Shown: one piece after another, positions 1,181 through 63,853 of the stretch
Numbering within the stretch: position 1 is the stretch's first letter
Layout: every line of letters starts with the position of its first letter
Assembly: GCA_027482685.1 (NCBI GenBank)
Contig: JAIXVU010000008.1
Coordinates: forward strand, 68,652-132,651
DNA length: 64,000 bases
Direction: 5' to 3'
Origin: a bacterium
GTDB taxonomy: Bacteria > Patescibacteriota > Minisyncoccia > Phycocordibacterales > UBA5272
Position numbers and translations under genes: made by a program
Notes under the pieces: model-generated
The model's input: only the letters and a program-made list of their open reading frames with translations
The model's database searches: none
What the model was told of the DNA's origin: nothing

Positions 1181-1372
1181 CTTATTCACTCATAATTAAT
1201 TCACAATCTAATGGCGGTATATATCCTTTTGTCATGAGATAACTATAGTAAAAGACGTACATAATTTATGAATAACATTTAAGTAGAAAAACTTTACTTT
1301 TATAAAAAATATGTTATTATGTAAAAGGTAGTCCTAGCTTCACTTCAACTTCCTTGAAAGGAAACCCTGATA

Positions 1373-34706: not shown

Positions 34707-34972
34707 AATACTTATGAGTATACATTGAAATATGGAATAGGTGTGTGGAAGGAGAATTTTATACCTAATATTATAAGTTTCGTTCTAACACTGTGACCCT
34801 TCAAATCTCAACGTAACTCAATATAGGCTGGTTAATTCAACCCTACAAAATATTAAATCCCGAAACTTTATGTTTCGCGATTTAATATTTTGCACACACT
34901 GATGGATGAAGTAAGAACTAGAATTATGAATTGAAATTAAAAACTTTTAACTCCATTCAACTTATTAAATAA

Positions 34973-35896
34973 CTATACAATTTTAATTACAACACTACCC
35001 TTTTTACGACCTGTATCGACATATATATTAGCCTCTACAATTTCCTCCAACTTAAATGTCCTGTCAATAGTAGCCTTTAATTTACCGTCATCGAACATAC
35101 TAGCAAGCTCTTCCAAATTTAATGACATCTCTTTTGCTACATCAAAACCATTAACAGTTATATATTGACCATTAACTGCTATAAGGTGCTTAACTTTAGC
35201 TTTTGAAATTTTACCAACTGCATCAAAAACTATATCAAATTTTCCTTCAATCTCGCTAAGGTCTGTAACTTGGTAATCATAGACTTTGTCAGCTCCAAGA
35301 GTTTTCGTTAAGTCTAATCCATCTTTACTGCACACAGCAGTAACACTGCAGCCCAAGTATTTTGCAACTTGTACAGCCACTGACCCAACAGCACCAGTCG
35401 ATCCGTAGATTAATACTTCCTTATTTTTACTGGCACCTGCTTTACGTAAAAAGTATAATGCGGTGCTGCCCACGAAAGGTAACGCACTAGCTTCTTCAAA
35501 ACTAGCTAGCTTAGGCTTTAGCGCAATTGCTTCTCTAATAGGCAGAGCACAATACTCACCATAAGCTCCAAAATTAAATCCTGTCATTGCAAACACTTCG
35601 TCACCAATTTTAAACTTATCTACACCTTCACCAAGCTCTACTATTTCGCCTGCTAATACGACACCAGGCACACGTCTTGGTTTTACTATACCTAGTAAAA
35701 AACGTATAACAATTTTTGCAATGAAACCTTTAAGTCCTGGACCTGCATCCAATGATCTCATTCTTACATCTGCCGAATTCACAGAAGCTGCTTTAACTTT
35801 AATTAAAACCTCCCCCTTCCTAGGTTCTGGCTTCTCAATATCTTGAATACTTAAGACATCAGGCCCTCCATAGCCACTTGCAATCACTGCTTTCAT
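34973..35896 (-). CDS. NADPH:quinone oxidoreductase / zinc-type alcohol dehydrogenase superfamily (MDR) protein. Start taken as MKAVIAS.
   Basis: MKAVIASGYGGPDVLSIQDIEKPEPRKGEVLIKVKAASVN. Rossmann motif GSTGAVGSVAVQVAK. Confidence 0.8.
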   Translation of the reverse strand: MKAVIASGYGGPDVLSIQDIEKPEPRKGEVLIKVKAASVNSADVRMRSLDAGPGLKGFIAKIVIRFLLGIVKPRRVPGVVLAGEIVELGEGVDKFKIGDEVFAMTGFNFGAYGEYCALPIREAIALKPKLASFEEASALPFVGSTALYFLRKAGASKNKEVLIYGSTGAVGSVAVQVAKYLGCSVTAVCSKDGLDLTKTLGADKVYDYQVTDLSEIEGKFDIVFDAVGKISKAKVKHLIAVNGQYITVNGFDVAKEMSLNLEELASMFDDGKLKATIDRTFKLEEIVEANIYVDTGRKKGSVVIKIV

Positions 35897-36007
35897 ATTT
35901 TTATTTAATATTTTTTTATAGTAAGGAATTTTACTTTTACAGTATACCTTTTCTGTGTCCATTGCACTCGTAACAAAAGAATCATATTTCTATTACCATT
36001 TTTCTAG

Positions 36008-36035
36008 ATGCGGTCGATGGGATTTGGTCACAAAT
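36008..36035 (-). repeat. partial copy of the tRNA-Asp 3' end (CGATGGGATTTG + GTCACAAA), repeat 1
   Basis: GCGGTCGATGGGATTTGgtcacaaa matches the T-arm/acceptor 3' half of the tRNA at 36282-36355. Confidence 0.6.
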
Positions 36036-36117
36036 TTATCTTACTTTTATATTCATGGGTTTAGCTATAAGTTTCGTTTCGTCGCCACTCAACGAACTCG
36101 CAGTCCATCGCTTGCGA

Positions 36118-36143
36118 TTCTCGATGGGATTTGGTCACAAAAC
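36118..36143 (-). repeat. partial copy of the tRNA-Asp 3' end, repeat 2
   Basis: CTCGATGGGATTTGGTCACAAAA, the same junction as repeat 1. Confidence 0.6.
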
Positions 36144-36281
36144 TTCTCCTCGCAAGCTCGTCGATAAAGTTTCGCGACCCCTATTCAAATCCCAACGCCC
36201 ATGACGCAGGTCATGGACTTCTATCTCGTCACGAAAAGTAAAAAGTACCGATTTATTAAAATCGATACTTTTTACTTTTTG

Positions 36282-36355
36282 CGCGGTCGATGGGATTTGA
36301 ACCCACGACCCCTGCCGTGACAGGGCAGTGCTCTAACCAGCTGAGCTACGACCGC
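36282..36355 (-). tRNA. tRNA-Asp(GTC)
   Basis: Reverse complement GCGGTCGTAGCTCAGCTGGTTAGAGCACTGCCCTGTCACGGCAGGGGTCGTGGGTTCAAATCCCATCGACCGCG. Anticodon loop CTGTCAC. Confidence 0.85.
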
Positions 36356-36526
36356 ATCTTTTATTTTTTACTTGCAAATCTTCTAAAACATTTGCAGTTA
36401 CAACATTCTACCATATTTATAGGAACATTCAAGACAACTTTCAAGACAACTTTACTGTGATACACTAATCAAATTATCTTTATACCCCAACTAGTTACTA
36501 ACAACTAATTACTAATAACTATCCCT

Positions 36527-37756
36527 ATGGCTTCATTTTCTCCTAAAAAATACTTCAAAAAAATTGGCACACCCTCACTTATCACTAAGTACTATAATAC
36601 ACATGGACTAGAGGTGCTATTCCCAATTTCCGAAGGAACGCCAAGAAAACAAATTATAGACATGCTCATCGAAAGTCATAAGAACTTATCACCAGAAAAA
36701 AAGATTCTTATTTCACAAGAGCTTGCCGTACTTGACACAGTGTCAAATAAACAAACTGTACTCTTATTACCAAGTATTTTCAAGGAGCACAGGGTTGCAA
36801 GAAATGAAGAGATTGAATGCCAAACAGATGCTGACAAAATATTACACATATACATCTACCATGATGATATTTTTAAAGAAATACTTTTCTTAAACGATTT
36901 TTACAAAAATCGTTCATATATGATCTATGAAGCGCCAGAGATTGATATCAAAGCAGCAGAGTATAATCTCACTGAGCTTTCAAAAGAGCTAACGCGAATA
37001 TTAAACACTGAGGAACGGGTAACTGATTGTGATGTAACAGGAAAGATACTCAATAACATTCTCTATGTAAGTGCTGTATTTGATGGTCTGCCTGAGATTA
37101 TACCAATACGAAATAATGAAACTGGAGAATTAGATAGAAGTAATACTCGTAGAAAAGTAGAGCAGATACGTTTCGTATACCTGCCTCAAGACAAAGAAGT
37201 ACTACTAGCATACAAAGGAAACAAAGAAGAGAAAAATATTCTTCTTGATACTTTCCTTAGGATAGTATGTAAAGGTAATGGTTTTGAAGATAAGATTGAA
37301 TCATTTGATTTAGAAAAAATTAAAAACAAAAACTTTGACTTTTTAACTAATAAGAAAAACATTCCTTTGCTTACATGGAAAATAAAAGCGCTTACGCTTA
37401 GCTTTGGTGGAGATGAGAAGTTTAAGAAAAAGCTACGCATCACTCTACCTAGTTCTGTCCATTCTCACGGACTAACACCATTATATGAAGCACTTGAGGA
37501 AATAAAGCTTTCTTCCGACCTTGAATCTTTTGAAATAGAAAATGTTTCTTTTATGTTTTCATTTACTGATAAAACGACACCAGACGCTACTATCAGTACA
37601 GCGTGTACCGTATCACTTCTAAAGTCCTCTCTATGTCCCCTCTTTGAGTATGAACGCCTCGCAAGATCACTCCTTAAGCAGTCAGGGATTGACGAAGGAT
37701 TTGTAGAACAAGCAGTAAAAGAAAAAGATGAAGTGACGAAGAAGTGGGAAATATAG
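36527..37756 (+). CDS. hypothetical protein (409 aa), no recognisable domain; an isolated plus-strand gene between tRNA-Asp and tRNA-Met
   Basis: A long ORF, AT-rich. Upstream motif AACTAATTACTAATAACTA shared with two other genes. Confidence 0.55.
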   Translation: MASFSPKKYFKKIGTPSLITKYYNTHGLEVLFPISEGTPRKQIIDMLIESHKNLSPEKKILISQELAVLDTVSNKQTVLLLPSIFKEHRVARNEEIECQTDADKILHIYIYHDDIFKEILFLNDFYKNRSYMIYEAPEIDIKAAEYNLTELSKELTRILNTEERVTDCDVTGKILNNILYVSAVFDGLPEIIPIRNNETGELDRSNTRRKVEQIRFVYLPQDKEVLLAYKGNKEEKNILLDTFLRIVCKGNGFEDKIESFDLEKIKNKNFDFLTNKKNIPLLTWKIKALTLSFGGDEKFKKKLRITLPSSVHSHGLTPLYEALEEIKLSSDLESFEIENVSFMFSFTDKTTPDATISTACTVSLLKSSLCPLFEYERLARSLLKQSGIDEGFVEQAVKEKDEVTKKWEI

Positions 37757-37893
37757 CGAGGGGTGGGAATGCCTGCAAGTTCCATGTCATCGACGCTCTA
37801 TGGACTTGCAGGCTGTTGCTCGCAATTCAGGCCTCTACCCTCACAACGCTCCGCCGGTTGTTCCTACCACAAAAGTAAACACTGACTTTCTCA

Positions 37894-37951
37894 CCGACAC
37901 AAAATACAAAAAGTTAAGTCAGATGACTTAACTTTTTGTATTTTGTGTCGG
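37894..37951. repeat. 27-bp perfect inverted repeat with a 4-nt loop, whose right arm overlaps the 3' acceptor end of the minus-strand tRNA-Met
   Basis: CCGACACAAAATACAAAAAGTTAAGTC-agat-GACTTAACTTTTTGTATTTTGTGTCGG. Confidence 0.8.
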
Positions 37952-38019
37952 CGGGTGGGAACGATCCACCGACCTTGGGCTTATGAGTCCCACGCTCTAA
38001 CCAACTGAGCTACGCCGAC
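37946..38019 (-). tRNA. tRNA with a CAT anticodon (elongator Met or Ile2-lysidine type); unusual T-loop ATCGTTC
   Basis: Reverse complement GTCGGCGTAGCTCAGTTGGTTAGAGCGTGGGACTCATAAGCCCAAGGTCGGTGGATCGTTCCCACCCGCCGAC. Perfect 7-bp acceptor stem. Loop CTCATAA. Confidence 0.7.
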
Positions 38020-38342
38020 ATATGTATTGATTGTAACCATGCTCATAAGCTCATTAATCAATTGCGCTTATGGTTCCATGTCTCATAACAGCCGAGCTAT
38101 GCGACATACATTACTTGTTAAGTTTGTTTGCACATTTCTAACAATGTAGTACATATACTACTATAAAAAATATACTTTTTCAATATGTACTCTTGTAAAA
38201 AAACAATACTTGTGGTACTATGTTTTAACTTAGGGTAAGTATAGCTTACGCTAAACAAATGCATAAAAGAAGAATGCAGAGGTAACTCACAAGAGACAAA
38301 TAGCTCTCATAACCTCCGAGGTTATTGATACTCGTTAAAATA

Positions 38343-38413
38343 ATCAAGATAGTAAATATATAGCGGGGTAGAGTAGAGGTAACTCACGAGGCTCATAACC
38401 TCGGGACACAGGT
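38343..38413 (+). tRNA. tRNA with a CAT anticodon and initiator-like features: 1-72 mismatch (A-A), G2-C71/C3-G70/G4-C69, A11:U24, discriminator A
   Basis: AGCGGGGTAGAGTAGAGGTAACTCACGAGGCTCATAACCTCGGGACACAGGTTCGATTCCTGTCCCCGCAA. T-loop TTCGATT. Confidence 0.65.
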
Positions 38414-38463
38414 TCGATTCCTGTCCCCGCAACAAGAATAATAAATGACGTACTGCAATCAGT
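38414..38463. repeat. 18-bp perfect inverted repeat (CAAGAATAATAAATGACG / CGTCATTTATTATTCTTG) starting at the tRNA 3' end
   Basis: A perfect hairpin with a 14-nt loop, right after the 38343-38413 tRNA. Confidence 0.75.
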
Positions 38464-38579
38464 GCGTCATTTATTATTCTTGTTCGCATTAGAAGCATGT
38501 GACCTGCGTCACATGCGGCAGGAATCGAATACGAGGTCGCGAGACTTTATCGAGGAGCTTGCGACGAGAAGTCTTGTGA

Positions 38580-38602
38580 CCGATTCTGTCCCCGCAACAA
38601 GT
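38580..38602 (+). repeat. direct repeat of the 3' end of the tRNA at 38343-38413 (GATTC-TGTCCCCGCAACAAG)
   Basis: ACCGATTCTGTCCCCGCAACAAG against the tRNA's TCGATTCCTGTCCCCGCAACAAG. A 5'-half fragment, AGAGGTAACTCAC...CTCATAACCTCCGAGG, also lies upstream at 38275-38330. Confidence 0.6.
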
Positions 38603-38605
38603 AAA

Positions 38606-38643
38606 AGAAAAGCGACATCTTCAGGTGTCGCTTTTCTTTTACT
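38606..38643. terminator. bidirectional terminator AGCGACA-tcttcagg-TGTCGCT + TTTTCTTTT
   Basis: A perfect 7-bp stem with a T-run. Confidence 0.6.
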
Positions 38644-40054
38644 TAATCGCCTTCAATTCTCTAAACACCGACTCAAAAAGAGTAAATGCTCTCTTGGCTT
38701 CTCTGTCTGTTAATACAAAATCAGAACCTTCATGAGCAACTCTATTACGAATTTTATGCGCATCCCATGCGAGGTCAATAGTCTTGAAACTTGCGCCCTT
38801 TAATTTTTCACCTACACCCTCACCTTGATAGCCTTTTTTATCAAGTACTTCAAGTAACATATTATCAGCTTCCATAATACCAATCCTCCATAGCGCCTCG
38901 CTATCACTACTCATGTACCCTTGAATGATTGCAAAGCGTGGATGGTCGTTAAAGTCTTCCACAGTCGGCGGGGCAGCAGGCGCATCATCAAACACCGGTA
39001 GATTAGCAATACCTGCTGGATAGGTATCTACTTGCTCATCTTTCTTGCTGCTTGTATCTTGTACAACATGGTATCCACCATGCGAAGTTGCACCATGTCC
39101 ATCATGCCCGCCATGTCCATGTGAGAAGTGCTCTTCATAATCATTAAGAGCGCTATCAAATGTAAAATACCATTTAAGAACTGTGTACACAAGAAATACA
39201 ATTCCAACTAACGCAACGATTGACAGTAGATCAGCAAAGAGTGCAAGCACAGGGTTCTGTATAGAAAAATGCAGCCCAGTTTTCTCAAAATCAAACGGCG
39301 CAATCTGACCAATATTCTCAGCATCAAGTGGATAGGAATCAAACCCGTCAGGTATCCCATCACCATCTGAGTCTTTATTATTTATATCTGTCCCCATATA
39401 ACTCTCTGCTCTATCGCTTACTCCATCACCATCTATATCAACCGTAAGAGCGGATATTGTAGGATCAAGTGGCGCTTCATCACGCCCATCTATCACTCCA
39501 TCACTATCTGTATCATTATTAAGCGGATTAGTCCCCTCCGCGAGCTCACGTCCATCAAGCGAGCCATCTCTGTCACTATCGGGATTGTTTGGATCCATAC
39601 CGTGTGTAAGTTCATAGCTATCTGGAACACCATCTTTATCTGTATCTTTTGGACCAAATCCGAAAAAATCTCGCACTTTATCCCATATTGTATAATCTGC
39701 CTCATAACGCTCTTTTAATTCTGCGCTAGTTAAATTCTGAGAATCATTCGGACTATCATCTGATACATCTGGTATGCCATCGCCATCACTATCAGGAAAT
39801 GTATATCCAAAAGCCTGCAAAATCTTCTGCCATAATGTAAGTTGTATATCAGCAGGCGGAACTACAGCGTCTTTTGCAGCAAAGTATTCATTAAACCATC
39901 CGCGATCACGAAGACCATCCCATGTACTATCTTTGCGTGCCTCTATGTATTCTTCTGGGCTAGTTCTCCAAATAACAAACAACCAAAAATACTTTATCCA
40001 AAGTAGTACATCATACACGCGGTTGAAAATATAATCAATGGATAGAGAATACAT
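38639..40054 (-). CDS. membrane protein with six thrombospondin-type-3-like Ca-binding Asp repeats (DxDxDGxxD), a central TM helix, a His/Gly-rich segment and a C-terminal soluble domain
   Basis: DSDGDGIPD, DTDKDGVPD, DSDRDGSLD, DTDSDGVID, DIDGDGVSD, DSDGDGIPD. TM helix LLSIVALVGIVFLVYTVL. HFSHGHGGHDGHGATSHGGYH. Confidence 0.55.
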   Translation of the reverse strand: MYSLSIDYIFNRVYDVLLWIKYFWLFVIWRTSPEEYIEARKDSTWDGLRDRGWFNEYFAAKDAVVPPADIQLTLWQKILQAFGYTFPDSDGDGIPDVSDDSPNDSQNLTSAELKERYEADYTIWDKVRDFFGFGPKDTDKDGVPDSYELTHGMDPNNPDSDRDGSLDGRELAEGTNPLNNDTDSDGVIDGRDEAPLDPTISALTVDIDGDGVSDRAESYMGTDINNKDSDGDGIPDGFDSYPLDAENIGQIAPFDFEKTGLHFSIQNPVLALFADLLSIVALVGIVFLVYTVLKWYFTFDSALNDYEEHFSHGHGGHDGHGATSHGGYHVVQDTSSKKDEQVDTYPAGIANLPVFDDAPAAPPTVEDFNDHPRFAIIQGYMSSDSEALWRIGIMEADNMLLEVLDKKGYQGEGVGEKLKGASFKTIDLAWDAHKIRNRVAHEGSDFVLTDREAKRAFTLFESVFRELKAIK

Positions 40055-46018: not shown

Positions 46019-46733
46019 ATCCGGTAGCTGATGATCGTATCATGCCAGAACTAAACACCTGAACAGATCGAACATGACCTGCAACAAGTATACCATTCTG
46101 AATTGCTTTATTTGAACGCATCTCTATACACGCCCCCATAACTCTGGTGGTGGTATTATTAAGATAAATAGAAGGAAGTGGGCTAGGTCTGGTGAAAGAA
46201 ATTGTGAGTGATGTTACTTGGGGGGTGTTGTTTGCTCCACAACTGAATGGGTATGATGTACCTACACATATCTTTGATATAAATGAAGTTGAAGATGTAG
46301 CAAATATTGTAACAGTCTGAGCCTCATTAAATGGAGTGGTTGCGGAGTATAGCCCATCACCTATAGGTAGTCCGTTTGAAGTCCCGGCAGAAGCATCTAC
46401 AGTATCTCCAAAAAGAATTACTCTCCGTGGGGTAGAAGCGTCAAAATACACTCCATACCCCCCAAGAGAGTTATTGACAGAGTCTACTGCACTACCACGT
46501 ATCTGAGCTTCTCTAAGTGCTAGTGCGATAGTTTGATTATTGTTAGCGAGATTAAGCCTGACTGATGTTTCTGGATATCGATATATGAGTGTTGTCGATA
46601 TTACCGTCATAACCGAAAGAGATACCAAGAGTTCTAGCAAGGTAAATCCTTTATATCTCGGTAAAAAGAAAATGTTAGATTTTCCTTTTTGATTATTGTC
46701 TTTGTGTTTGATAATGAACTCTAAGATTTTCAT
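46002..46733 (-). CDS. type IV pseudopilin
   Basis: YKG|FTLLELLVSLSVM. Confidence 0.65.
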   Translation of the reverse strand: MKILEFIIKHKDNNQKGKSNIFFLPRYKGFTLLELLVSLSVMTVISTTLIYRYPETSVRLNLANNNQTIALALREAQIRGSAVDSVNNSLGGYGVYFDASTPRRVILFGDTVDASAGTSNGLPIGDGLYSATTPFNEAQTVTIFATSSTSFISKICVGTSYPFSCGANNTPQVTSLTISFTRPSPLPSIYLNNTTTRVMGACIEMRSNKAIQNGILVAGHVRSVQVFSSGMIRSSATGCDAQL

Positions 46734-46736
46734 TCC

Positions 46737-47579
46737 TTAATAGTACCACCTAGAAAGTAGGTTTGCGATGGAGAAGATATCTATATCTGTGAACAGTACG
46801 ATTAGAAAAGCAATAACAATAAAAGGTACAAATGGTATTGCTTTAGACACAAACGCAACATGGTTGGTTTTCGTTTTGTATTGCTTATCCAGAATATATA
46901 AGATTACCCCGACAATTGCTCCAAGCCAAACTGATATCATTAGTACTGCCATACTTTGCTCTATACCAAAAAATGCGCCGACACCGAAAAAAAGAATCAC
47001 ATCTCCAAAACCAACACCTCTTCCACGAGTAATGATAAAAAGTGTTAGAAACGGCAACGCGGCTACGACAGGGCTAAGCAGGAAGAGACTCTTTGATTCA
47101 TCTGGGGTCATTCCAAGATAACGATAACAAAACATTGCGAGTGTTAGTCCAATAAACGCTAACAAAAAGCGAGCTGGTATGAACGAATGCCTTTTGTCAT
47201 ACAGTGCTATAACCCCAAGAACTATAAACAGTATTGTGTAGTATAGTCCGTATCCGATTTTATGCGTTATGTCGATTTGACTTGCGATAATAGTTCCATA
47301 CAGAATTACAAAAACTGTTCCATAGAATATTTCTACAAGCAAACTTTCCACTCCATATACAGATTTACAGTACCTACACTTACCTTTAAGCCAAAGATAC
47401 GAAATAATAGGAATAAGGTCAGAAACGCGAAGTGCCTCTCCGCAGGAGAGGCACTTACTACGACTTTTAATGATAGGAGCAACGTACAAACGTGATACTA
47501 CTACCTGTACGAAACTTCCTATTGCTGCACCGAAGATAAATGATACAAGATACGCCACGATGAACGGTATACTATACAA
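46737..47579 (-). CDS. pilD: prepilin peptidase (A24 family)
   Basis: N-terminal CxxC...CxxC zinc module (CLSCGE...CRYCKS), polytopic membrane body, ~280 aa. Confidence 0.85.
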   Translation of the reverse strand: MYSIPFIVAYLVSFIFGAAIGSFVQVVVSRLYVAPIIKSRSKCLSCGEALRVSDLIPIISYLWLKGKCRYCKSVYGVESLLVEIFYGTVFVILYGTIIASQIDITHKIGYGLYYTILFIVLGVIALYDKRHSFIPARFLLAFIGLTLAMFCYRYLGMTPDESKSLFLLSPVVAALPFLTLFIITRGRGVGFGDVILFFGVGAFFGIEQSMAVLMISVWLGAIVGVILYILDKQYKTKTNHVAFVSKAIPFVPFIVIAFLIVLFTDIDIFSIANLLSRWYY

Positions 47580-47594
47580 CTAGTGGAACAATTA

Positions 47595-48275
47595 CTACTG
47601 TTGAGCAGATACATCAAAGACACAATCAGTTGTCGCATTACATCTAGCAATGTCACCGTCAGAACCATCGTAGTCGTCATCGCTACCCGCAGTTGGAGAC
47701 GCACCAGAACCAGGGTTGGTAACTGGAGGCATCATACCTAATTGGTAATTAAGTGATCCTGTTGTTGTACTATATGAAGATAGAATTGTTGTACCTACTG
47801 CTGGGTAAAATGCACACGTACTTGTTCCAAGAATTGTTTCAAATGTTGCTGTGTTACCCGCCCCTAGACAATCACGATCGTTATCTAGACCTTGTGAATA
47901 TGTTTCAAGGTGAACCCCTAGGTGATAACCGAATGTTACAGGGTTTCCAATGTTTGCTCCTGATACTGTAAACGCAGTGTATCCGAACTTATCACGATTA
48001 GATATTGTTGTAAGTGTTGATGACGCAAATGATGGTAGAAGTGGTATAAATGTAGGACTAAGAGGAGCGAGTGAATAAGGATACTGTCCAGCGTTAGCCT
48101 CAGCGTACTGATCAAGCGCGAGCTGTACGGATTTAATTTCTGCTATCTTTTTCGCATCGCGAGCTTTCTTGCGCGCATTCTGAATTGGAGCAGCGATAAT
48201 TGTTGAGAGAAGTCCGATGATTGCAATAACCACGAGGAGCTCAATGAGCGTAAATCCTCGGAAACCTTTTTTCAT
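47595..48275 (-). CDS. pilA: type IV major pilin-like protein. The ORF extends to 48290.
   Basis: Classic leader MKKGFRG|FTLIELLVVIAIIGLL. Confidence 0.75.
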   Translation of the reverse strand: MKKGFRGFTLIELLVVIAIIGLLSTIIAAPIQNARKKARDAKKIAEIKSVQLALDQYAEANAGQYPYSLAPLSPTFIPLLPSFASSTLTTISNRDKFGYTAFTVSGANIGNPVTFGYHLGVHLETYSQGLDNDRDCLGAGNTATFETILGTSTCAFYPAVGTTILSSYSTTTGSLNYQLGMMPPVTNPGSGASPTAGSDDDYDGSDGDIARCNATTDCVFDVSAQQ

Positions 48276-48461
48276 AAAAGTGTGTATCATATATATTATT
48301 TATCTTTGTAGATACTTTTAGTATATTCCCCTTCCACGAAAGCACAAGTGACTAATCCCGTAGTCTGTGGATAAATGGAATTCTGGTAGTAGGCAGTACG
48401 AAGAAAGCAGTCAGGATGTACAGAAAATAAAGCACTACGATACCACTAACTACTCTAAGCT

Positions 48462-49709
48462 TTACGCTAGTCCAATCAAAGGAGCTATATACGTAATAGA
48501 ATCTGACAATGAGTACATAGGGAGAAGAACTGCAGACACGAGTATTCCAACACCAAGTCCGAGCCCAACAATCATCGCAGGTTCAATAAGCCCGATAACA
48601 TTATCAATAGCAGTATCAAGCTCACGTTTATAAAACACCGCCAAGTTCTTAAGGATATAGCCGAGCTCTCCCGTCTCCTCTCCAATGCCCACCATTTGGA
48701 CGAGGATATTTGGCACTTCAGGCTCTTCATAGAGAGCTTTTGAAAACGATGTACCTGTTTGGACTTTTTTTGCAACACGGCGCATTAGGTCTTTGTGGAC
48801 AGTATTTTCTATAAGATCTGCGGTAATTTCTATTGCTCTCACAATAGGCACTCCACTTGAAAGCATTGTGTTCATGTTATCTGATAGTCGAGTAAGGAAT
48901 ATCTGCCGGTAGAGTGACTTAAATACTGGTGTCTTAAGTTTAACTTCATCGACTTTGTGACGACCTTCGTCTGTCTGTGCCCATCGATAAAAAAGCCAAC
49001 CAAGTACAATAAGTGTAGGAAATGTAATCGGACCATATTTAACGAAAAGATCAGAAATAGCGAGAACGATACGCGTTACAAGAGGAAGTGTTGCCCCCTG
49101 CTCTGCGAAAAGTGCTGCCATTTTAGGGATAACAAATGTGAGCATACCCACCATAATGAGCACAAACGTTCCTATGACAAAGGATGGGTAGGTAAGAGCT
49201 TTCTTTATCTTCTGGTTAAGTTCATACTCACGATCCATAAAGTCTGCAAGATAGAGGAATACTTCGTTTAACTTACCTGTTTCTTCGCCGGACTTTACCA
49301 TGTTCACATAAAATGGTGAGAAAAGTAGTGGTCGTCTAGAAAGGGCATCTGACAGAGAAACACCAGACTCGATATCATTAGATACACCGACTAACTGCTC
49401 TTGTAGAGTTTTGTTTTCGTTTTCGGCAGCGAGCAAGCGAAATCCTTTTAAAGCAGAGACACCCGCCTCGAAAAGAGTTGCGATCTGCCGAGAGAAGATC
49501 ACCACATCTTTAGGTTTTATTTTTTGTTTGAGCGCATCATTGAGCATTCTCTGTGGATCAAGAGAGAACCCTTGACCTTTTTCAGCAATATCAATAACAC
49601 TAATAGAACGCTTCTGAAGTAGAGATACTGCATCATCAATAGAAAGTGCCTCTATTTCGGCTTCTACTTTTGTATTTTCTATTGTTACACCACGATAATG
49701 AAAGAGCAT
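48462..49709 (-). CDS. pilC: type IV pilus platform protein (GspF/PilC family)
   Basis: Two T2SSF repeats, three TM segments, 415 aa. Confidence 0.88.
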   Translation of the reverse strand: MLFHYRGVTIENTKVEAEIEALSIDDAVSLLQKRSISVIDIAEKGQGFSLDPQRMLNDALKQKIKPKDVVIFSRQIATLFEAGVSALKGFRLLAAENENKTLQEQLVGVSNDIESGVSLSDALSRRPLLFSPFYVNMVKSGEETGKLNEVFLYLADFMDREYELNQKIKKALTYPSFVIGTFVLIMVGMLTFVIPKMAALFAEQGATLPLVTRIVLAISDLFVKYGPITFPTLIVLGWLFYRWAQTDEGRHKVDEVKLKTPVFKSLYRQIFLTRLSDNMNTMLSSGVPIVRAIEITADLIENTVHKDLMRRVAKKVQTGTSFSKALYEEPEVPNILVQMVGIGEETGELGYILKNLAVFYKRELDTAIDNVIGLIEPAMIVGLGLGVGILVSAVLLPMYSLSDSITYIAPLIGLA

Positions 49710-49718
49710 GGTATATGA

Positions 49719-50801
49719 TTATAAAAGTCTATCAAAAAGATTTTGTCTACGAGCAAATGCGCGTGCATCCTCTCTTGTAACCTCACCACGACGAACAAGC
49801 TCTGCAAGGTATCTATCAAGGTCAATCATACCCTCCTGTGAACCTGTCTCTATGAGTACGTCAATTTCGTGAGAGCGTCGCTCACGTATGAGATTAGCAA
49901 CTGCGGGGGTGTTGATGAGTAGTTCAAAGGCAGGAATAAGCCCTCCTGAGATACGAGGCACTAGCCTCTGAGACATAATACCAATAAGAGACGATGCTAA
50001 CTGTACACGTATCTGATCCTGTTGATCAGCGGGGAAACTATCAATAATACGGTCAACTGTCTGTGCTGCAGAGTTAGCATGGAGTGTGGACAGTACTAAG
50101 TGCCCTGTCTCAGCTGCAGTTACCGCGGTTGAGATAGTCTCTTTATCACGCATCTCCCCTATCATAATCACATCTGCATCTTGTCTGAAGATATGCGTAA
50201 GTGCAGTATTAAAGTCCGCCGTATCAACACCAACTTCTCGCTGCTCAATGAGGGATTTATCTTGAACGAAACGAAATTCTATCGGATCTTCAACGGTAAC
50301 GATGTGACGCTTGGACTCACTGTTTATCATGCCTATCATTGATGATAAGGTGGTTGACTTTCCTTGCCCAACAGGACCAACGACCAGGAAGAACCCTTGT
50401 CGCTCACGAGCTATTTGTATCACTTGTTCTGGTAAGTTAAGCTCATGAATAGAGCGAACCTTTGGAATAAGACGTAGCGCTATAGAGATAAACCCTCTTT
50501 GAAACGAGGCGTTTCCACGCAAACGATATTCGCCTTTGTGTTCGTAAGAAAAATCAAGTTCCTGCGAAACAACGAACTTCGTGAGTGCTTTTTCACTTAT
50601 CATAACTTTAAGCAATCCTACTGTATCCTCAGGAGTAAGTTCCTTCTTGCGAGTAAGAGGTATGAGATCGCGATCCACACGTAGAGTTGGGAACGCGCCA
50701 ACTGAAAAGTGAAGGTCTGACCCCGACTCTTTGATCAGTGTCATGATAAGATCATCTAGTTCAATTTCGTAATTCATAAAATAAATTGGTAGATAGTACA
50801 A
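49719..50801 (-). CDS. pilT: type IV pilus retraction ATPase PilT/PilU
   Basis: Walker A GPVGQGKSTT. Asp box. Walker B MIGEMRD. His box LVLSTLHANSAAQT. Confidence 0.85.
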   Translation of the reverse strand: MYYLPIYFMNYEIELDDLIMTLIKESGSDLHFSVGAFPTLRVDRDLIPLTRKKELTPEDTVGLLKVMISEKALTKFVVSQELDFSYEHKGEYRLRGNASFQRGFISIALRLIPKVRSIHELNLPEQVIQIARERQGFFLVVGPVGQGKSTTLSSMIGMINSESKRHIVTVEDPIEFRFVQDKSLIEQREVGVDTADFNTALTHIFRQDADVIMIGEMRDKETISTAVTAAETGHLVLSTLHANSAAQTVDRIIDSFPADQQDQIRVQLASSLIGIMSQRLVPRISGGLIPAFELLINTPAVANLIRERRSHEIDVLIETGSQEGMIDLDRYLAELVRRGEVTREDARAFARRQNLFDRLL

Positions 50802-50882
50802 GTAATGTACTGATAATAATTAGAGTATAGCAAGAGAACGTGCAAGTACAATTATATAGCCGTGGATAAAAAAGTCTGAGTA

Positions 50883-52646
50883 CTAAAGCTCATTAATTTC
50901 AGGAAATGGAATTTTACCTGCAATACATTTTATCATTGCATCTTCTTTTAGAGTAACCATGCCTTTTTTACGAGCAAGCTGCCAAATTGCCTCCTCACCT
51001 TTACTTCGCAAAATTGCCTCTTCAATATCCTTGTCAAAGGTTAATATCTCAAACACCGGCACACGCCCCTTCATACCAGTCGGGTACTGAGCATTTGGAA
51101 CTGCAGTGTGAAAAGGTCTATCAAGTTTGTATTTTATCTTAAACTCAGGAGGAAGATCAGCAAATGTTGTATCGATAAGTTTAGTAAGAGAAGCATTCAT
51201 CTCCATCGGCTCTGCACAACCTTCAGCAATTGCTCGTGATAGACGTTGACCAATGGTTGCTATAATAGTTGGCGCAATAAGATACGGCTCTATACCCATA
51301 TCCAATAGACGTGTGATAACACCGATTGCCGTGTTGGTGTGAATTGTGGAGAACACTAAGTGTCCAGTGAGTGCTGCTTGGATAGCAAGCTGGGCAGTTT
51401 CTGCATCTCGAATCTCTCCCACCATGATTACATCAGGATCTTGACGAAGAATAGAACGAAGGCCGGAGGCAAACGTATACCCAATTTCTGGGAACACCTG
51501 TGATTGGTTCATCCCAGGTACGTTGTATTCGATAGGGTCTTCAAGAGACACCACATTTCTATGTTCACGGTCAATTTCGTTTAACATCGCGTATAGCGTT
51601 GTTGTTTTTCCTGACCCTGTAGGACCTGAGATAAGCACCACACCGTATGGACGACCGAGCATGTCTCTTAACTGCTCCATTTGATGTTCAGAAAATCCAA
51701 GAGTGTTGACGGGACGAACTCCACGGTAACTATCCAAGATACGGATTACCACCTTTTCTCCATAATACCCAGGAAATGTCGATACACGGTAGTCAATTTT
51801 GTGATCACCGAACTTTGTACTGAATCGCCCGTCTTGTGGCTTACGCTTCTCATCAAGCTTCATGGAACACAGAATTTTAATACGAGCAACTATCATCGGA
51901 TGTAACTTAGGTGGAAGAGACGTAACGATATCAAGACGTCCATCCATACGACAACGAGCTCGAACCGATGCTCCAACATGCTCAATGTGTATATCAGATG
52001 CCCCGTTATCAATAGCATAACGAAGTATAGTACTAAATATCTCAGGTACAGGTAGTTTTGCCAGATCTTTATCAAGGCCACTAGTTATTGATTCTAAGTC
52101 AATTTCTTTTGAGTCATCATCTTTTGAAACACCATCTTTTACAACATAGGAAAGTGTTGCAGCATCATCAATCTTAGTTGTAATACTTGCTTTTTCTCCT
52201 TCATCTGTGATCCCAAAGTGTTTTTTGTAACCGCTGTATGGAATTAAAAATACTTTATACGGTGTGTGGTCTGTTCCAAAAAGAAACTGAAGGCTATCGA
52301 GTACGTTTGCATGATCAGGGTCGACTATCCCAACAAGCAAAACTCCTTCTTTCATTTCAAGAGGGGTTGCGAGGAATTGTTTTGATTGAGCAACGCTTAC
52401 ATATTTAGTAAGGTCACTATTTTCTTTTATCTCATCTTTATATATCGGTAATCCGTAGAGAATATTACGAATATCAAGTATCTCGGCTTCTGTTATATTT
52501 TTCTTAAGTAAAACATCATCAATAACCGCATCTTCACGCGTTGCTAAATCAGCAGCTATTTCTTCTGCTTCTTTTTCTGTTAACTTATTTTGACTAACGA
52601 AGAGGTCGAGAAGAAGCATAAGGTAAGAATGGGTCCAAACGTCCAC
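50883..52646 (-). CDS. pilB: type IV pilus assembly ATPase PilB/GspE
   Basis: Walker A LISGPTGSGKTTTLYA. MVGEIRD. VFSTIHTN. 587 aa with an N-terminal GSPII domain. Confidence 0.9.
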   Translation of the reverse strand: MDVWTHSYLMLLLDLFVSQNKLTEKEAEEIAADLATREDAVIDDVLLKKNITEAEILDIRNILYGLPIYKDEIKENSDLTKYVSVAQSKQFLATPLEMKEGVLLVGIVDPDHANVLDSLQFLFGTDHTPYKVFLIPYSGYKKHFGITDEGEKASITTKIDDAATLSYVVKDGVSKDDDSKEIDLESITSGLDKDLAKLPVPEIFSTILRYAIDNGASDIHIEHVGASVRARCRMDGRLDIVTSLPPKLHPMIVARIKILCSMKLDEKRKPQDGRFSTKFGDHKIDYRVSTFPGYYGEKVVIRILDSYRGVRPVNTLGFSEHQMEQLRDMLGRPYGVVLISGPTGSGKTTTLYAMLNEIDREHRNVVSLEDPIEYNVPGMNQSQVFPEIGYTFASGLRSILRQDPDVIMVGEIRDAETAQLAIQAALTGHLVFSTIHTNTAIGVITRLLDMGIEPYLIAPTIIATIGQRLSRAIAEGCAEPMEMNASLTKLIDTTFADLPPEFKIKYKLDRPFHTAVPNAQYPTGMKGRVPVFEILTFDKDIEEAILRSKGEEAIWQLARKKGMVTLKEDAMIKCIAGKIPFPEINEL

Positions 52647-52932
52647 GAGTGGCGTTTGGAGATATTACCTCAGAGTAATCATCAAGCATTTCTACAAGAG
52701 GGGAGGACATAAATGAAACATCTTTAAACGAAATCTTTTCTCGTGAAGTAACATTGATGAAACTAATAAAATTAGCACTAAGTAATTTATCACCTCCAGT
52801 AACTGATATGGTGGTTGTCTCACCCAGAATAAACCTATCGTATAAGTAATACCCCCCAGCAAATACAGCAATAAGAATAAAAACTTCTATAATAATGGTC
52901 TTCTGTTTTGGTGAAATAGATGGTGTTGTCAT
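52594..52932 (-). CDS. small membrane-anchored protein in the PilP position (RDPF-like motif GRLDPF)
   Basis: N-terminal TM helix. RGRLDPFLPY near the C-terminus. Lies between pilO and pilB. Confidence 0.4.
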   Translation of the reverse strand: MTTPSISPKQKTIIIEVFILIAVFAGGYYLYDRFILGETTTISVTGGDKLLSANFISFINVTSREKISFKDVSFMSSPLVEMLDDYSEVISPNATRGRLDPFLPYASSRPLR

Positions 52933-52942
52933 ACTATGTTAT

Positions 52943-53494
52943 TTACTTTATATAAAAAGTGTTAAATCTTACTCTAAATTCTATAGAATCTGGATTTTTC
53001 TCTGAGGCTCCAAATGAGACAGATTCTATTTGAAAGAGCCTAAGATTGGTTTCAAATAGTCTTATAAGATCTTTAAATCTTGGATACGACGTCGTTACCG
53101 AAAAACCAACACCATAGACACCTGGTACTCCCGCTGCTGGTTTTGTAAGCTCTGAAACATTTAAGTCTTTAAGGGTAACATTAATAATATTTGCCATATT
53201 AACCATTTCACTTAAAAGACGAGTACGATCTATCGTGTCCGGAACCATTAGTTTTAGTTTTTCTTTGTCACTACCACTAATTTTTTCATAGTCTTTTTTT
53301 AGATCATCTGCTTGTTTTACTATTTCTTCTGCACGAATAATAGCTTGAACATACTGCTGTTTTTCTACTTTGAGTTTAGAGATACTTTTCGGTTGCCAAA
53401 GAGTACCCTCACCGCTATAAAGCGGATTAATGACAAAATAATACAGAGCTCCAGCTAATAGTAATAAAAGTGTAATAAGTAATTTAGGTGACAT
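52943..53494 (-). CDS. pilO: PilO-like pilus assembly protein
   Basis: N-terminal TM helix then coiled-coil. Operon position after the pilN-like gene. Confidence 0.65.
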   Translation of the reverse strand: MSPKLLITLLLLLAGALYYFVINPLYSGEGTLWQPKSISKLKVEKQQYVQAIIRAEEIVKQADDLKKDYEKISGSDKEKLKLMVPDTIDRTRLLSEMVNMANIINVTLKDLNVSELTKPAAGVPGVYGVGFSVTTSYPRFKDLIRLFETNLRLFQIESVSFGASEKNPDSIEFRVRFNTFYIK

Positions 53495-53496
53495 GG

Positions 53497-54153
53497 CTAC
53501 TGGGCTTGATTAACTGAAGGAACTTGTCGGGTTTCATTGTTTGTCTTAATAATAAACTCCTCAGGCAATATTTTCTTTATAAGAATAGTAGATTTTATAG
53601 AAAAATTTACCGTTCCTTTTTCGTCTGCACTAACACCACTAAACGTAAGATCAGGCATATAGTCTGAGTATGGCTTATTTTTAAGTGTTTCCTGTTGCTG
53701 AATAACCGTCTTATAGTCAGGTGACTTAGCAGCAATCACGATACTATAGCTTTCTTTTGTTTGCTCACGTTTAAAATCGAACTGAGAATACGTTATTGGA
53801 TGTTCTATGCTATCTTCTAAAATACGAAATGCTGTTGCAACTGACGCATGCTCTGTAACTAGTTTTTTTGCTACTTTCATGCGTGCTGATAACACTATCA
53901 TGTCGTTAATCGGCAAATCTTGTAATCGCGTATCATACTGTGCAAGCTTAGTTTGTTGTTCTGTTACATCCCTTTGGAGTTTCTGTTGATACAAAAACAA
54001 GACTAAAGATAGAACCAGAGTAACCCCAAAAACAACTGCTGCAAGAAACGTGAATAAGCTACTCTTTGATTCTTTGAAGCGATTGGTTAACCCCTCTGCC
54101 GAAAGAGTTGGTGGTGGTGTCGTATCTTGAGTTGGTTTAAATGAAAACGGCAT
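53497..54153 (-). CDS. pilN: PilN-like pilus assembly protein
   Basis: A single TM helix FTFLAAVVFGVTLVLSLVLFLY then coiled-coil. Follows pilM. Confidence 0.65.
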   Translation of the reverse strand: MPFSFKPTQDTTPPPTLSAEGLTNRFKESKSSLFTFLAAVVFGVTLVLSLVLFLYQQKLQRDVTEQQTKLAQYDTRLQDLPINDMIVLSARMKVAKKLVTEHASVATAFRILEDSIEHPITYSQFDFKREQTKESYSIVIAAKSPDYKTVIQQQETLKNKPYSDYMPDLTFSGVSADEKGTVNFSIKSTILIKKILPEEFIIKTNNETRQVPSVNQAQ

Positions 54154-54156
54154 GAA

Positions 54157-55245
54157 TTATTTTTGAGGAACTAGCTTCTTTAAGGCACATCCGATAGCTA
54201 CTGCATATGTTGGACCGACTTTTTGTATCATATCATGCAAAAAATCTGGCACGCTTATCTGGTCAAACGGTGTCGCTATCCTTCCTGGGATGTGCACCGT
54301 CTGATCATATGCACCGAGTAGCCCTGGGACTCTTGCTCCGCCTCCAACCAAAATTATTCCTTCTATCACTTGATTATACTTTTTTTCATACATCAAAGAT
54401 AGACGTGCGACCTCACCAAACAGTGGATAACTAGAAAGTTGCATCACATCCTTAAGATATGGATTAGATGCATCTCCTAAGTATCCGAAGCGACGTTTAG
54501 CTTCTTCAGCTGTTTCAATTGAAAGTGAAAGCGCCTTAGCTAGTTGTGCGGTGCTCTGTTGTGACCCCCTACTAATCACATGCATATCAAGTACAGTACT
54601 TTGGTATACAAGTGATAGTGTTGTAAACTGCGCTCCTATATCAACGTACAAAATCATTGCTTGTGTAAGTGGTGGACTGCTCCGCATAAGACTATATCCA
54701 GGTATTTCATAATCAACAGAAGTAAACTCAAGTTTTGTTGTTATTCTTTCGTAGAGATTAAGTGTATCGTTCTTAACAGCAGCGAGAACTACGTTCATCA
54801 TTCGTTCATCAACCTTTATCTCTGAACTATCCGGTATGTGCCACCAGTCCATCTGTACTTCGGTAAGCGGAACTGGAATATATTTCTTAGCTTCAAACGC
54901 CATCATTGTTTTTAGTTGAGTATCATCAACCTTTGGAACTTTAATGAGTGAGACGAATGCTCCTGACGGATCAATAGAAACAACTGCATTTTTTGCAGTT
55001 ATTTTTGCGGCAGCGAAAAGATCACGCATAACTTCTATGAACTTATCCTCCCCGAGGTGAGTGGTCTGGCCTGCAATAAGACCCATATAAGGACCGAGCT
55101 CAACCTCCCCATATGTGTCTAAAATAATCTTTTCTTTTTCGCGACGTAGCTGTACTACTTTTATAGATGACGAACCTATATCAATACCAATCGCTTGAGC
55201 AACATCCTCTTTTTTGAAAAAACTAAACATACTACTAGTATACAT
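54157..55245 (-). CDS. pilM: type IV pilus assembly ATPase-like protein PilM (actin fold)
   Basis: IGIDIGSSSIKVVQL at the N-terminus. 362 aa. Confidence 0.85.
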   Translation of the reverse strand: MYTSSMFSFFKKEDVAQAIGIDIGSSSIKVVQLRREKEKIILDTYGEVELGPYMGLIAGQTTHLGEDKFIEVMRDLFAAAKITAKNAVVSIDPSGAFVSLIKVPKVDDTQLKTMMAFEAKKYIPVPLTEVQMDWWHIPDSSEIKVDERMMNVVLAAVKNDTLNLYERITTKLEFTSVDYEIPGYSLMRSSPPLTQAMILYVDIGAQFTTLSLVYQSTVLDMHVISRGSQQSTAQLAKALSLSIETAEEAKRRFGYLGDASNPYLKDVMQLSSYPLFGEVARLSLMYEKKYNQVIEGIILVGGGARVPGLLGAYDQTVHIPGRIATPFDQISVPDFLHDMIQKVGPTYAVAIGCALKKLVPQK

Positions 55246-55283
55246 CGTTTAATGATATAGTTTATAGCGTATACACTTCTATT

Positions 55284-62678: not shown

Positions 62679-62845
62679 AGCAATACTTATAATACTACCG
62701 TATCTTAAGCATAATGATAATCAAAAAAGACAGCTACTATACTAAGAAGTATATATAGAGAAGACAAGATTCTCTTATATATCACTCATCCACCGCTCAA
62801 CAAAAATGGCCACCTGGGTTCTAGGGTGGCGCATTTTTGTACAAG

Positions 62846-62932
62846 CGGAGAAAGTGGGATTCGAACCCACGGGGCTAATAAAAGCCCGACGGTTTAGTAA
62901 ACCGTTGATTTAAACCACTCATCCATTTCTCC
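62846..62932 (-). tRNA. type-II tRNA, Ser-like (G73 discriminator, long variable arm), with anticodon loop TTACTAA, i.e. apparent anticodon ACT
   Basis: Reverse complement GGAGAAATGGATGAGTGGTTTAAATCAACGGTTTACTAAACCGTCGGGCTTTTATTAGCCCCGTGGGTTCGAATCCCACTTTCTCCG. Confidence 0.6.
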
Positions 62933-63733: not shown

Positions 63734-63814
63734 AAAATAGACTAGGCACTTACAACAACACGTCCCAAGAGACGATGATAATTTCACCGCAAAATCTTTC
63801 TCGTTGCCGCAAAA

Positions 63815-63850
63815 TAAAAAAGAGTCCGCATATGCGGACTCTTTTTTATT
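63815..63850 (+). terminator. rho-independent terminator
   Basis: GAGTCCGCA-t-ATGCGGACTC flanked by A- and T-runs. Confidence 0.75.
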
Positions 63851-63853
63851 TTG

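Follow-up and report, generated by a model that had tools for sequence, protein, structure and literature searches.

A 64,000-nucleotide stretch of contig JAIXVU010000008.1 (positions 68,652 to 132,651; the window) is chromosomal DNA, with about 40% G+C, of a bacterium of the candidate phyla radiation (CPR, Patescibacteria). This assignment is based on the GatA, NAD-dependent DNA ligase and rhodanese genes beside an open reading frame (ORF) of 409 amino acids (aa), and on homologues named Candidatus Paceibacterota and Nomurabacteria. In the region of this ORF lie three tRNA genes, on which ARAGORN, Rfam and an initial annotation of the sequence agree: tRNA-Asp(GTC) and two tRNAs with a CAT anticodon, labelled Met(-) and Met(+), each of which may be of the initiator, elongator or tRNA-Ile2 type. 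All three are trailed by short non-coding units that contain both inverted and direct copies of the end of the preceding tRNA, and that belong to a multi-copy family of two-hairpin modules. The features of the locus are collected in Table 1.

Table 1. Features around the three tRNA genes (window positions; CM, covariance model; module parts as defined in the text)
Feature	Position	Strand	Basis or detail
Displaced old terminator and decayed Asp-type module	34760-34890	-	Terminator 34846-34890; X' GTTGAGATTTGAAGGG
Pseudo-tRNA-Asp end closing the ADH cassette	34891-34918	-	GTTCTTACTTCATCCATCAG+TGTGTGCA; exact match to GTTCYNACTTCRTCCMNNAG at 34899-34918
Zinc-type alcohol-dehydrogenase-like (ADH) gene	34973-35962	-	Pfam ADH_N, ADH_zinc_N
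Asp unit 3, remnant	36010-36034	-	Last bases of inner hairpin, GTCACAAA, 36027-36034; tRNA-end copy GCGGTCGATGGGATTTG 36010-36026
Asp unit 2, decayed	36035-36119	-	Variant inner hairpin (CUGCGAGUUC..GAAACUUAUAGCU) and decayed X; alignment with Met(-) flank, L015, L035
Asp unit 1, intact module	36120-36233	-	CM match 36110-36239, 117 bits, E 2.8e-38; junction GAUAGAA; P1 36197-36218; X' 36185-36196; bulge GAAUAG; inner hairpin 36133-36181; GTCACAAA 36134-36141; direct copy CAAAUCCCAUCGAG 36120-36133
Term1(Asp), terminator-like hairpin immediately 3' of tRNA	36234-36279	-	21-bp arms, 95% complementary
tRNA-Asp(GTC), anchor (attachment) gene	36281-36355	-	ARAGORN and Rfam, 71.8 bits
Conserved lineage-specific gene, 409 aa	36527-37756	+	Only ORF inside the tRNA region
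Divergent module behind Met(-)	37756-37893	-	Alignment and anatomy, missed by CM; junction UGAGAAAG; X' GGUAGGAAC 37860-37868; variant inner hairpin 37771-37813; X/Y copy AUUCCCACCCCUCGC 37756-37771, abutting the stop codon of the 409-aa gene
Term1(Met-), perfect hairpin	37894-37951	-	28 bp, 100%
tRNA-CAT, Met(-)	37945-38019	-	ARAGORN and Rfam
Degenerate copy of Met(-) 5' half (positions 1-45) in tRNA leader	38020-38105	-	Local alignment
Partial Met(+) copy (D arm/anticodon arm)	38275-38330	+	Repeat search and local alignment
tRNA-CAT, Met(+)	38362-38433	+	ARAGORN and Rfam
Term1(Met+), hairpin	38431-38484	+	25 bp, 96%
Intact module behind Met(+)	38485-38601	+	CM match 38474-38604, 109.5 bits; junction CAUUAGAA; P1 38495-38516; X' 38520-38529; bulge; inner hairpin 38535-38581
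Direct tRNA 3'-end copy of Met(+) module	38581-38601	+	1-nt deletion relative to last ~20 nt of tRNA
Term2, second terminator-like hairpin past the displaced tRNA-end copy of Met(+)	38599-38644	+	Inverted-repeat search

Near-perfect, terminator-like hairpins of 21-28 bp stand directly behind all three tRNA genes, with a stem that, in at least two cases, begins within the acceptor 3' strand. For the CAT tRNAs such an overlap had been part of the initial annotation, which gave stem lengths of 27 and 18 bp instead of the 28 and 25 bp found here; these lengths are the only error in what it described. The outer 6-7 bp of Term1(Met-) consist of the acceptor 3' strand paired with its complement.

The modules follow one order. 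Read in the sense of the tRNA, it comprises the tRNA with its segments X and Y, Term1, sometimes Y', a junction, the hairpin P1, X', a bulge, an inner hairpin, a second X (with or without Y) and Term2. X stands for tRNA positions ~56/57-65, that is, the 3' part of the T loop and the 3' strand of the T stem; Y stands for positions 66-74. Y' is the complement of Y and, where present, prolongs the Term1 stem into the tRNA. A purine-rich junction with the consensus (A)UAGAAG precedes P1, a 9-bp hairpin with a CCUGCG loop. X' is an inverted copy of the tRNA segment X, continued through GAA (the complement of T54-C56), and is followed by the bulge UA(C)G and the inner hairpin GGGUCGCG...UUGUGAC. In the resulting long hairpin, P2, the basal helix pairs X', the inverted tRNA copy, with the direct copy X, which often continues into Y (acceptor 3' strand, up to position 74). 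The whole unit measures about 110-170 bp.

Two copies in the window are intact, Asp unit 1 and the module behind Met(+). They are 88% identical along 52 nt and have a second block in common, where none is expected by chance, and the two-hairpin fold has z-scores of -4.6 (Asp unit 1) and -4.5 (Met+). tRNA-Asp is trailed by three units in a row. Its 3' end recurs twice, as had been noticed initially, joined both times to the same GTCACAAA (36014-36034 and 36121-36141). Over these 21 nt, TCGATGGGATTTG plus GTCACAAA, the two places are 100% identical to each other; tRNA-Asp itself agrees to 76%. The conserved 3' end of the inner hairpin of P2 reads, in reverse complement, GTCACAAA; the same junction is reused at Met(+), where a recurrence of the last ~20 nt of the tRNA had likewise been seen, and in about 200 other copies. 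Unit 3 contains, in GCGGTCGATGGGATTTG, the most complete copy of the tRNA-Asp 3' end and matches the single unit of L001, one of the loci collected from other genomes (L numbers). A variant inner hairpin, CUGCRAGUYC...GAAACUUGYAGSC, is common to Asp unit 2, the Met(-) flank, L015 and L035. Therefore, all three tRNAs hold units of one superfamily. The shared two-hairpin module, the inverted T-arm copy and the variant module at Met(-) and Asp unit 2 had been overlooked in the initial annotation.

Among the tips of the inner hairpin, three of five types combine a 5' UCGA/CUGA with a 3' GCGAGG/GUGAGGA (for example, window 38548-38568 and 36146-36166). By eye, this motif resembles a box C'/D'-like k-loop, and tips are swapped among copies at different tRNAs. 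In L058 (~2600-2660, plus strand), a tRNA-Tyr-like 3' fragment has a tip-like TCGAGCCTAGCAAGGCGAGAGG between T55 and C56 of its T loop.

The family is large. A motif scan of one genome per species gave 76 stretches, about 67 of them in CPR metagenome-assembled genomes and the rest looking like chance matches in unrelated phyla, with up to 7-8 copies per genome. Separate scans yielded 81 further stretches in metagenomes and, among 2.9 million viral contigs, one GC-rich match that was judged from its sequence to be due to chance; a phage origin of the module was rejected on this basis. Overall, CPR genomes and metagenomes contain about 200 copies. With a covariance model trained on 52 copies, 127 matches were obtained in 517 kb of collected loci, and in the window only the two strong copies were recognized. 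A module lies at most 150 nt downstream, on the same strand, of 62 out of 100 tRNAs in the genome loci and 48 out of 82 in independent metagenome loci, fractions which are upper estimates as the sample of loci is biased to occupied ones. The tRNAs concerned cover 18 amino-acid types, only four modules in these loci lie upstream of a tRNA, and the orientation is always that of the tRNA. Rfam at its gathering threshold recognizes only the tRNAs, while an E-value scan of 35900-38700 adds chance matches to miRNA-like hairpins. No description of such a tRNA-trailing element was found in literature searches, so that the family is apparently undescribed. Insertion at tRNA genes and hairpin repeats are known in kind; new are integrase-less units of 110-170 bp with inverted plus direct tRNA-end copies, their presence at most tRNAs of the sampled loci and their position at the borders of single-gene cassette arrays.

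Each module is specific to its local tRNA. Of the seven X' bases beside the universal TYGAA, five to seven agree with the cognate tRNA in all 44 tRNA-adjacent copies, compared to a mean of 3.35 for non-cognate tRNAs. The direct copy spans the acceptor end in 16 of these copies and the T stem in another 18, and 15 have a Y' that pairs with the tRNA acceptor strand for 8 nt or more. A tRNA-like three-way junction with a Y'/Y acceptor stem was considered and rejected, since just five of the 44 have a pairing of at least 7 nt between Y' and the downstream Y. Some other ideas were discarded as well. A T-loop insertion in a duplicated tRNA, or an intron-like element, does not agree with an X' that is the reverse complement of the T loop and not the T-arm 5' half, nor with the intact tRNAs; for a primer-binding site, Y' would have to be preceded by the complement of CCA, which it is not; and omega-RNA/TnpB, CRISPR or TIGR-type guide RNAs are at odds with the lack of an effector gene nearby, with X' and X being fully complementary to each other and with a Cas12c match of the 409-aa protein that amounts to only 14 bits.

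The predicted structure is supported by covariation. In the alignment of 52 sequences, standard pairs occupy 95.6% of the cells, as against 80.4% in shuffles (none of 500 reaching the observed value) and 34-45% when the partners are slid, and 21 of the 30 pairs have changes on both sides. These figures include four P1 pairs that were fixed by the search pattern and a basal helix (helix 2) whose covariation comes from its copying of different tRNAs; neither effect accounts for the covariation of the outer P1 pairs and the inner hairpin. Of the 52 sequences, 47 retain one particular G·U pair, and in our own tally G·U occurs about 124 times and A·C about 14 times on the tRNA-sense strand. This excess indicates that it is the single strand in the tRNA sense, either RNA or folded DNA, in which the structure is important. 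Loops and bulges are conserved in sequence, in particular CCUGCG, GAAUAG and GGGUCGCG/UUGUGACC.

The main alternative to the insertion modules discussed below is that P1-P2 is a functional non-coding RNA, either a tRNA trailer or an independent small RNA, which arises by read-through or from a promoter of its own and to which a protein binds. The basal helix would then need to match the T arm of the preceding tRNA, or to imitate it, for example for a role in pre-tRNA 3' processing, in quality control or as a decoy, and the multi-copy state and the cassettes would be secondary. We regard this as possible, though rather doubtful. The strong covariation with conserved loops and bulges, the prevalence of G·U over A·C, the constant orientation, the retention of orthologous copies over deep divergence with T-arm identity maintained, and the k-loop-like tips all speak for an RNA. 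However, between tRNA and module stands a long, perfect, U-tailed, strongly terminator-like hairpin, and promoter-like sites were looked for in front of the modules with no result, which together count against a separately transcribed RNA. Moreover, conservation does not extend to an acceptor-like closing stem, there are many copies that are decayed, tandem or nested or have been displaced behind cassettes, a related lineage with the same tRNAs has no module, and no Rfam family matches.

The occupancy of the tRNA genes differs between relatives. Behind tRNA-Lys(CTT), L012 has only a terminator, L030 one unit and L064 two, and two recognizably homologous terminators stand in swapped order in L030 and L064, which is the outcome expected of modular units recombining through the X-Y repeat. 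Near-identical duplicates occur within genomes (191 nt at 99.5% and 168 nt at 98.8% identity), starting in the T arm or acceptor end of a tRNA and stopping at the end of an X-Y copy. Fifteen of 120 modules are placed in tandem behind another module, and many are decayed. A Nomurabacteria-like relative has the same three tRNAs, tightly packed, with a module behind none of them, and the genes flanking tRNA-Asp also vary among relatives. Thus, occupancy varies and the junction is reused, so that neither an invariant arrangement nor simple tandem tRNA pseudogenes, the two outcomes that the initial annotation would have taken as refutation, is what we see. In L064, a contiguous perfect inverted copy of positions 53-72 of tRNA-Leu(TAG) lies right behind the terminator.

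The initial annotation had interpreted the repeats as footprints of integration and excision, that is, scars or a recombination hotspot. They are indeed marks of insertion or recombination at the 3' end of tRNAs, but the notion of mere scars does not hold for a conserved, covarying, multi-copy module. Direct repeats of a tRNA 3' end together with a regenerated tRNA are the classical signature of integration (PMC4383910; 10.1101/2020.12.28.424599), and the variable genes behind tRNA-Asp would also agree with passive attL/attR scars, left by integrase-carrying islands or prophages that integrated at these tRNA genes and were excised. Against such scars stand the intervening 100-160 bp, which are one conserved covarying module at more than 16 tRNA types and about 200 loci, the inverted tRNA-end copy, which att scars do not have, the lack of integrase fragments in the ORFs examined, and the single, chance-judged match in viral contigs. 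The family analysis has already largely refuted this view, and we consider it highly improbable.

Alternatively, the units might be a neutral by-product of palindrome-driven template switching at terminators and of tandem partial tRNA duplications, from which direct and inverted tRNA-end copies would arise in alternation, with P1 and the inner hairpin spread by gene conversion only and devoid of function. The inverted copy at tRNA-Leu(TAG) in L064 agrees with this, as do the terminators of module-less tRNA-Ser genes in the window, which also reach into the acceptor strand, and the tRNA half-copies on the 5' side. Nevertheless, P1 and P2 are conserved between genera far beyond neutral intergenic DNA, there are compensatory changes and a fixed G·U pair, and streamlined genomes of about 0.6-1 Mb are expected to purge junk, all of which makes this origin quite unlikely. 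Both passive scars and neutral palindrome growth explain much less than do insertion modules or a trailer RNA.

Modules are also found without a tRNA. For 43 orphan modules, ARAGORN detects no upstream tRNA, nor does Rfam in the 18 loci that were scanned with it as well. Orphan modules are preceded by a terminator and a conserved pseudo-tRNA end, in which GTTC and some 18 nt similar to YNACTTCRTCCMNNAG lead into the final 6-8 nt of the tRNA concerned. A strict pattern for this motif gave 23 occurrences against 5.4 expected, 13 of which were judged real, each being followed by a strong hairpin; this pattern replaced a loose fuzzy expression that was uninformative with its 822 matches. The genes just upstream of orphan modules are typically accessory, with defence genes among them, and encode the helicase HerA, Abi_C, DUF5677, HsdR (the R subunit of a type I restriction enzyme), methyltransferases, a deaminase-like protein and a HAD hydrolase. 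Arrays of such cassettes stand behind tRNA-Asp in several relatives: two modules and then a methyltransferase gene closed by a pseudo-end, terminator and module in L015, two genes each closed by a pseudo-end in L063, and three small genes, two of them so closed, in L001; in L008 a SET-domain gene occupies this place. The pseudo-end motif closes cassettes in L001, L015, L031 and L063. In L015 (~1160-1230, minus strand), a CAGTGCTT microsatellite and an N gap lie between the modules and the first pseudo-end, and the array is incompletely assembled. L010 (minus strand) has four units of CCAATCNAANGTTCTGAACCTGTGTACCNGTTGGAGCAC plus terminator, about 0.4-3.7 kb apart (offsets 622, 4290, 4671 and 5477 in the reverse-complemented locus), with a P1/P2 module only after the last one; this is apparently a longer array of cassettes.

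Behind the three Asp units of the window, the ADH-like gene is closed by a pseudo-tRNA-Asp end and is itself the cargo of one such single-gene cassette, inserted behind tRNA-Asp. It is absent from this position in L001, L008, L015 and L063, where other genes are found. Beyond it lies a displaced terminator that is the orthologue of the tRNA-proximal Term1 behind tRNA-Asp in L008, with a decayed Asp-type module (weak covariance-model match at 34736-34856, 9.9 bits). The old terminator and module have thus been displaced by the cassette. In the simplest scenario, the three units and the ADH cassette entered the space between tRNA-Asp and the terminator plus module that formerly followed it, so that the newer material would lie nearest the tRNA. 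The same order of insertion has been proposed for tycheposons (10.1101/2020.12.28.424599).

The units are bounded by tRNA-end repeats, vary in number and are stacked next to a tRNA that stays intact, and cassettes with related ends occur at the same places. On these grounds we infer recombination through the tRNA 3' end, and the interpretation that we prefer, giving it about an even chance, is that the units are integrase-less insertion modules that recombine in this way. Units would be added at the 3' end of a tRNA gene by recombination through the shared tRNA-end sequence, and single-gene cassettes with pseudo-tRNA ends would enter and leave by the same route. The tRNA would remain intact, a displaced copy of its end would be left behind, and older units and cassettes would be pushed outward and decay. 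P1/P2 would most probably act at the DNA level, as a protein-recognized attachment arm that is folded in single strand, like attP of CTX-phi or attC of integrons. As no recombinase was found travelling with the units, the catalyst would have to act in trans, unless the exchange is homologous (RecA) recombination after DNA uptake. A type IV pilus cluster in the window (~46700-55250), with a prepilin peptidase, a platform protein of the F type and an ATPase of the E type of type II secretion systems, and PilM, would fit DNA uptake as a possible route for cassettes. X' may come to match each tRNA by fold-back, through hairpin-templated copying or correction, as is suggested by the inverted copy behind the terminator of tRNA-Leu(TAG) in L064.

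Several points weigh against such insertion modules. The match of X' to each new tRNA demands this extra, presumed step and is the weakest link. No recombinase or transposase was found beside any copy: there is none among 18 tested ORFs of the window, in keeping with the initial annotation, which had found no integrase in the tRNA region, nor among eight cassette-adjacent ORFs, and clustering of 667 ORFs from 151 loci, with annotation by eye, gave no recurrent recombinase-like family. The recurrent neighbours, RluA, DprA, ClpB, MurB, LeuRS, ThrRS, HtpX and LemA, were likewise recognized by eye and look like housekeeping families. The Asp and Met(+) modules persist even in relatives whose neighbouring protein is only 45-55% identical, and orthologous Asp copies with a 55% identical neighbour protein show compensation (GGUCGC/GUGACC versus GGCUAC/GUAGCC). 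Such deep retention and compensatory changes look like purifying selection on a functional RNA, and pairing that is specific for G·U is what would be expected of an RNA. Finally, polymorphism within a species was not seen, L001-L003 and L004-L006 being identical to their references, nor was any circular or excised form, or any circular contig bearing a module.

Insertion modules of this kind would share properties with several known systems. In tycheposons of Prochlorococcus and Islander tDNA islands, as here, the 3' part of a tRNA gene is the insertion site, the tRNA is regenerated, partial tRNA copies flank the insert, newer inserts push older ones outward, and the cargo comprises defence and metabolic genes. 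The tRNA 3' direct repeat and the intact tRNA of classical islands are both found, whereas an integrase at the end of the insert is not; neither is an integrase or replication module present nearby. Furthermore, the units measure 0.1-1.5 kb instead of 5-100 kb, and they differ in the conserved two-hairpin module, the inverted tRNA-end copy and the occupation of more than half of the sampled tRNAs.

With integron arrays, the loci have in common a series of co-oriented single genes, each closed by a repeated, hairpin-containing, strand-asymmetric site of conserved structure, behind one fixed anchor. Such single-gene arrays are found in L015, L063, L001, L010 and L077 and with the ADH gene of the window. 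ORF-less units and a conserved gene diverging from the array (the 409-aa gene, tRNA-Asp and the cassettes) add to the likeness. In contrast to integrons, IntI was not found near the arrays, the divergently oriented 409-aa protein has no recombinase domain, and the RYYYAAC/GTTRRRY core of attC is replaced by GTTCYNACTTC..., GTTCYNACTTCRTCCMNNAG plus tRNA end plus hairpin. Folding is strand-specific on the tRNA-sense strand, as compared with the bottom-strand folding of attC, and the anchor is a tRNA 3' end, of which there are many per genome. Integron-like gene capture in Paceibacteria-type CPR bacteria, with tRNA 3' ends as primary sites, a single-stranded, folded P1/P2 arm that presents the T-arm duplex and through which single-gene cassettes (often for defence) and ORF-less modules would come and go, and an unrecognized recombination protein acting in trans, can be imagined but seems unlikely.

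The long hairpin in attP of CTX-phi and of IMEX (integrative mobile elements exploiting Xer recombination) has a stem that is a duplex copy of the target sequence, as is the case here. The IMEX-type order of target, inverted copy, loop and target corresponds to tRNA X, X', inner hairpin and X in all 44 tRNA-adjacent copies. However, the target is here the T arm and 3' end of a tRNA and not dif, there is no phage genome, and the hairpin would have to fold as DNA. Like MITE (miniature inverted-repeat transposable elements) and REP-like repeats (REP/BIME, RUP, Correia, RPE), the modules are short, multi-copy, non-coding, hairpin-forming and intergenic, often near terminators and with no transposase of their own. 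They are distinct in their strict association with, and orientation to, tRNA 3' ends and in their conserved loops and G·U pair. In addition, their X'/X arms are tRNA-derived and differ between copies, so that there are no fixed terminal inverted repeats as in MITE. The duplication at the modules amounts to 9-33 nt of tRNA end, and no transposase was identified.

CPR genomes are tiny, few mobile elements have been recognized in them, and the acquisition and shuffling of their accessory and defence genes is poorly understood. Modules at more than half of the sampled tRNAs and at the borders of cassette arrays would mark the main hotspots of the flexible genome in this lineage, and the module is a ready marker for finding such hotspots in metagenomes. 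It points to an unknown recombination or RNA-processing mechanism, and, whether RNA or folded DNA, it is a well-supported covarying structure that is absent from Rfam.

The 409-aa gene had been put forward as cargo or as a defence gene because its product has no recognizable domain. The latter is true, as there are no Pfam or NCBIfam matches and only marginal ones in PADLOC (Cas12c, E 0.0018, 14 bits) and PHROGs (E 0.12), besides a weak profile match to the Hjc resolvase (E 0.34). The protein has more than 150 homologues, all within this lineage and about 400 aa long, and only 67 cluster representatives of the family occur among 1.84 billion proteins. In every relative examined, down to 39% identity, the gene adjoins the Asp/Met/Met tRNA cluster near GatCAB, and LigA is also close where the locus reaches far enough. 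It is single-copy and is present in the module-less Nomurabacteria-like lineage too. A role as cargo, defence gene or recombinase was therefore rejected: this is a conserved resident gene and not mobile material, which removes a false lead, and the actual cargo is the ADH-like gene on the other side of tRNA-Asp.

An AlphaFold model of the 409-aa protein is confident (pLDDT 86, pTM 0.81). In a Foldseek search against the PDB, CENP-N, which we take to have an RdgC-like fold, was the top match (probability 1.0), and RdgC of E. coli and P. aeruginosa followed with probabilities of 0.91-0.99, at TM-scores of only 0.29-0.39. No link to RdgC at the sequence level was found (Pfam PF04381, profile search), and the 409-aa protein is about 100 aa longer than RdgC. 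The model would be compatible with an RdgC-like DNA-binding fold, a possible lead and not a result. Such a protein, encoded divergently from the tRNA-Asp array, would be a weak candidate for the trans-acting factor.

Both CAT tRNAs have partial copies on the 5' side, as the initial annotation had reported. Positions 1-45 of Met(-) are copied at ~38061-38105, and a 16-nt D-arm/anticodon-stem copy of Met(+) lies at 38278-38293; in either case none of 500 shuffles scores as well. A 5' partial copy of tRNA-Asp, looked for by local alignment in the same way, was not found. Direct copies of the tRNA 5' end are also present in leaders of L001 (5720-5810 and 7381-7460) and L007 (3606-3700), which additionally hold an inverted copy of tRNA positions ~24-34. 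The leader copies in the window, L001 and L007 mirror, on the 5' side, the direct and inverted arrangement of the trailers.

A few further observations concern single tRNA genes and modules. The T loop of Met(-) is unusual, AUCGUUC (A54, U58), and is the same in L007. L042 contains two identical modules, inverted (2397-2500, minus strand, and 2533-2636, plus strand) around a shared terminator, and no tRNA was detected nearby. In the two module-less tRNA-Ser genes of the window, a sequence imperfectly complementary to the acceptor 3' strand comes after the terminator (63800-63853 and 62790-62845), in one of them together with a short direct tRNA-end copy, ATCATCGTCTC. According to ARAGORN, the window also encodes a tRNA-Ser with the anticodon ACT (62845-62932, minus strand). 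A34 outside tRNA-Arg is unusual in bacteria. This tRNA recurs in L050, L079 and one metagenome locus, and in three relatives tRNA-Ser(ACT) bears modules too.

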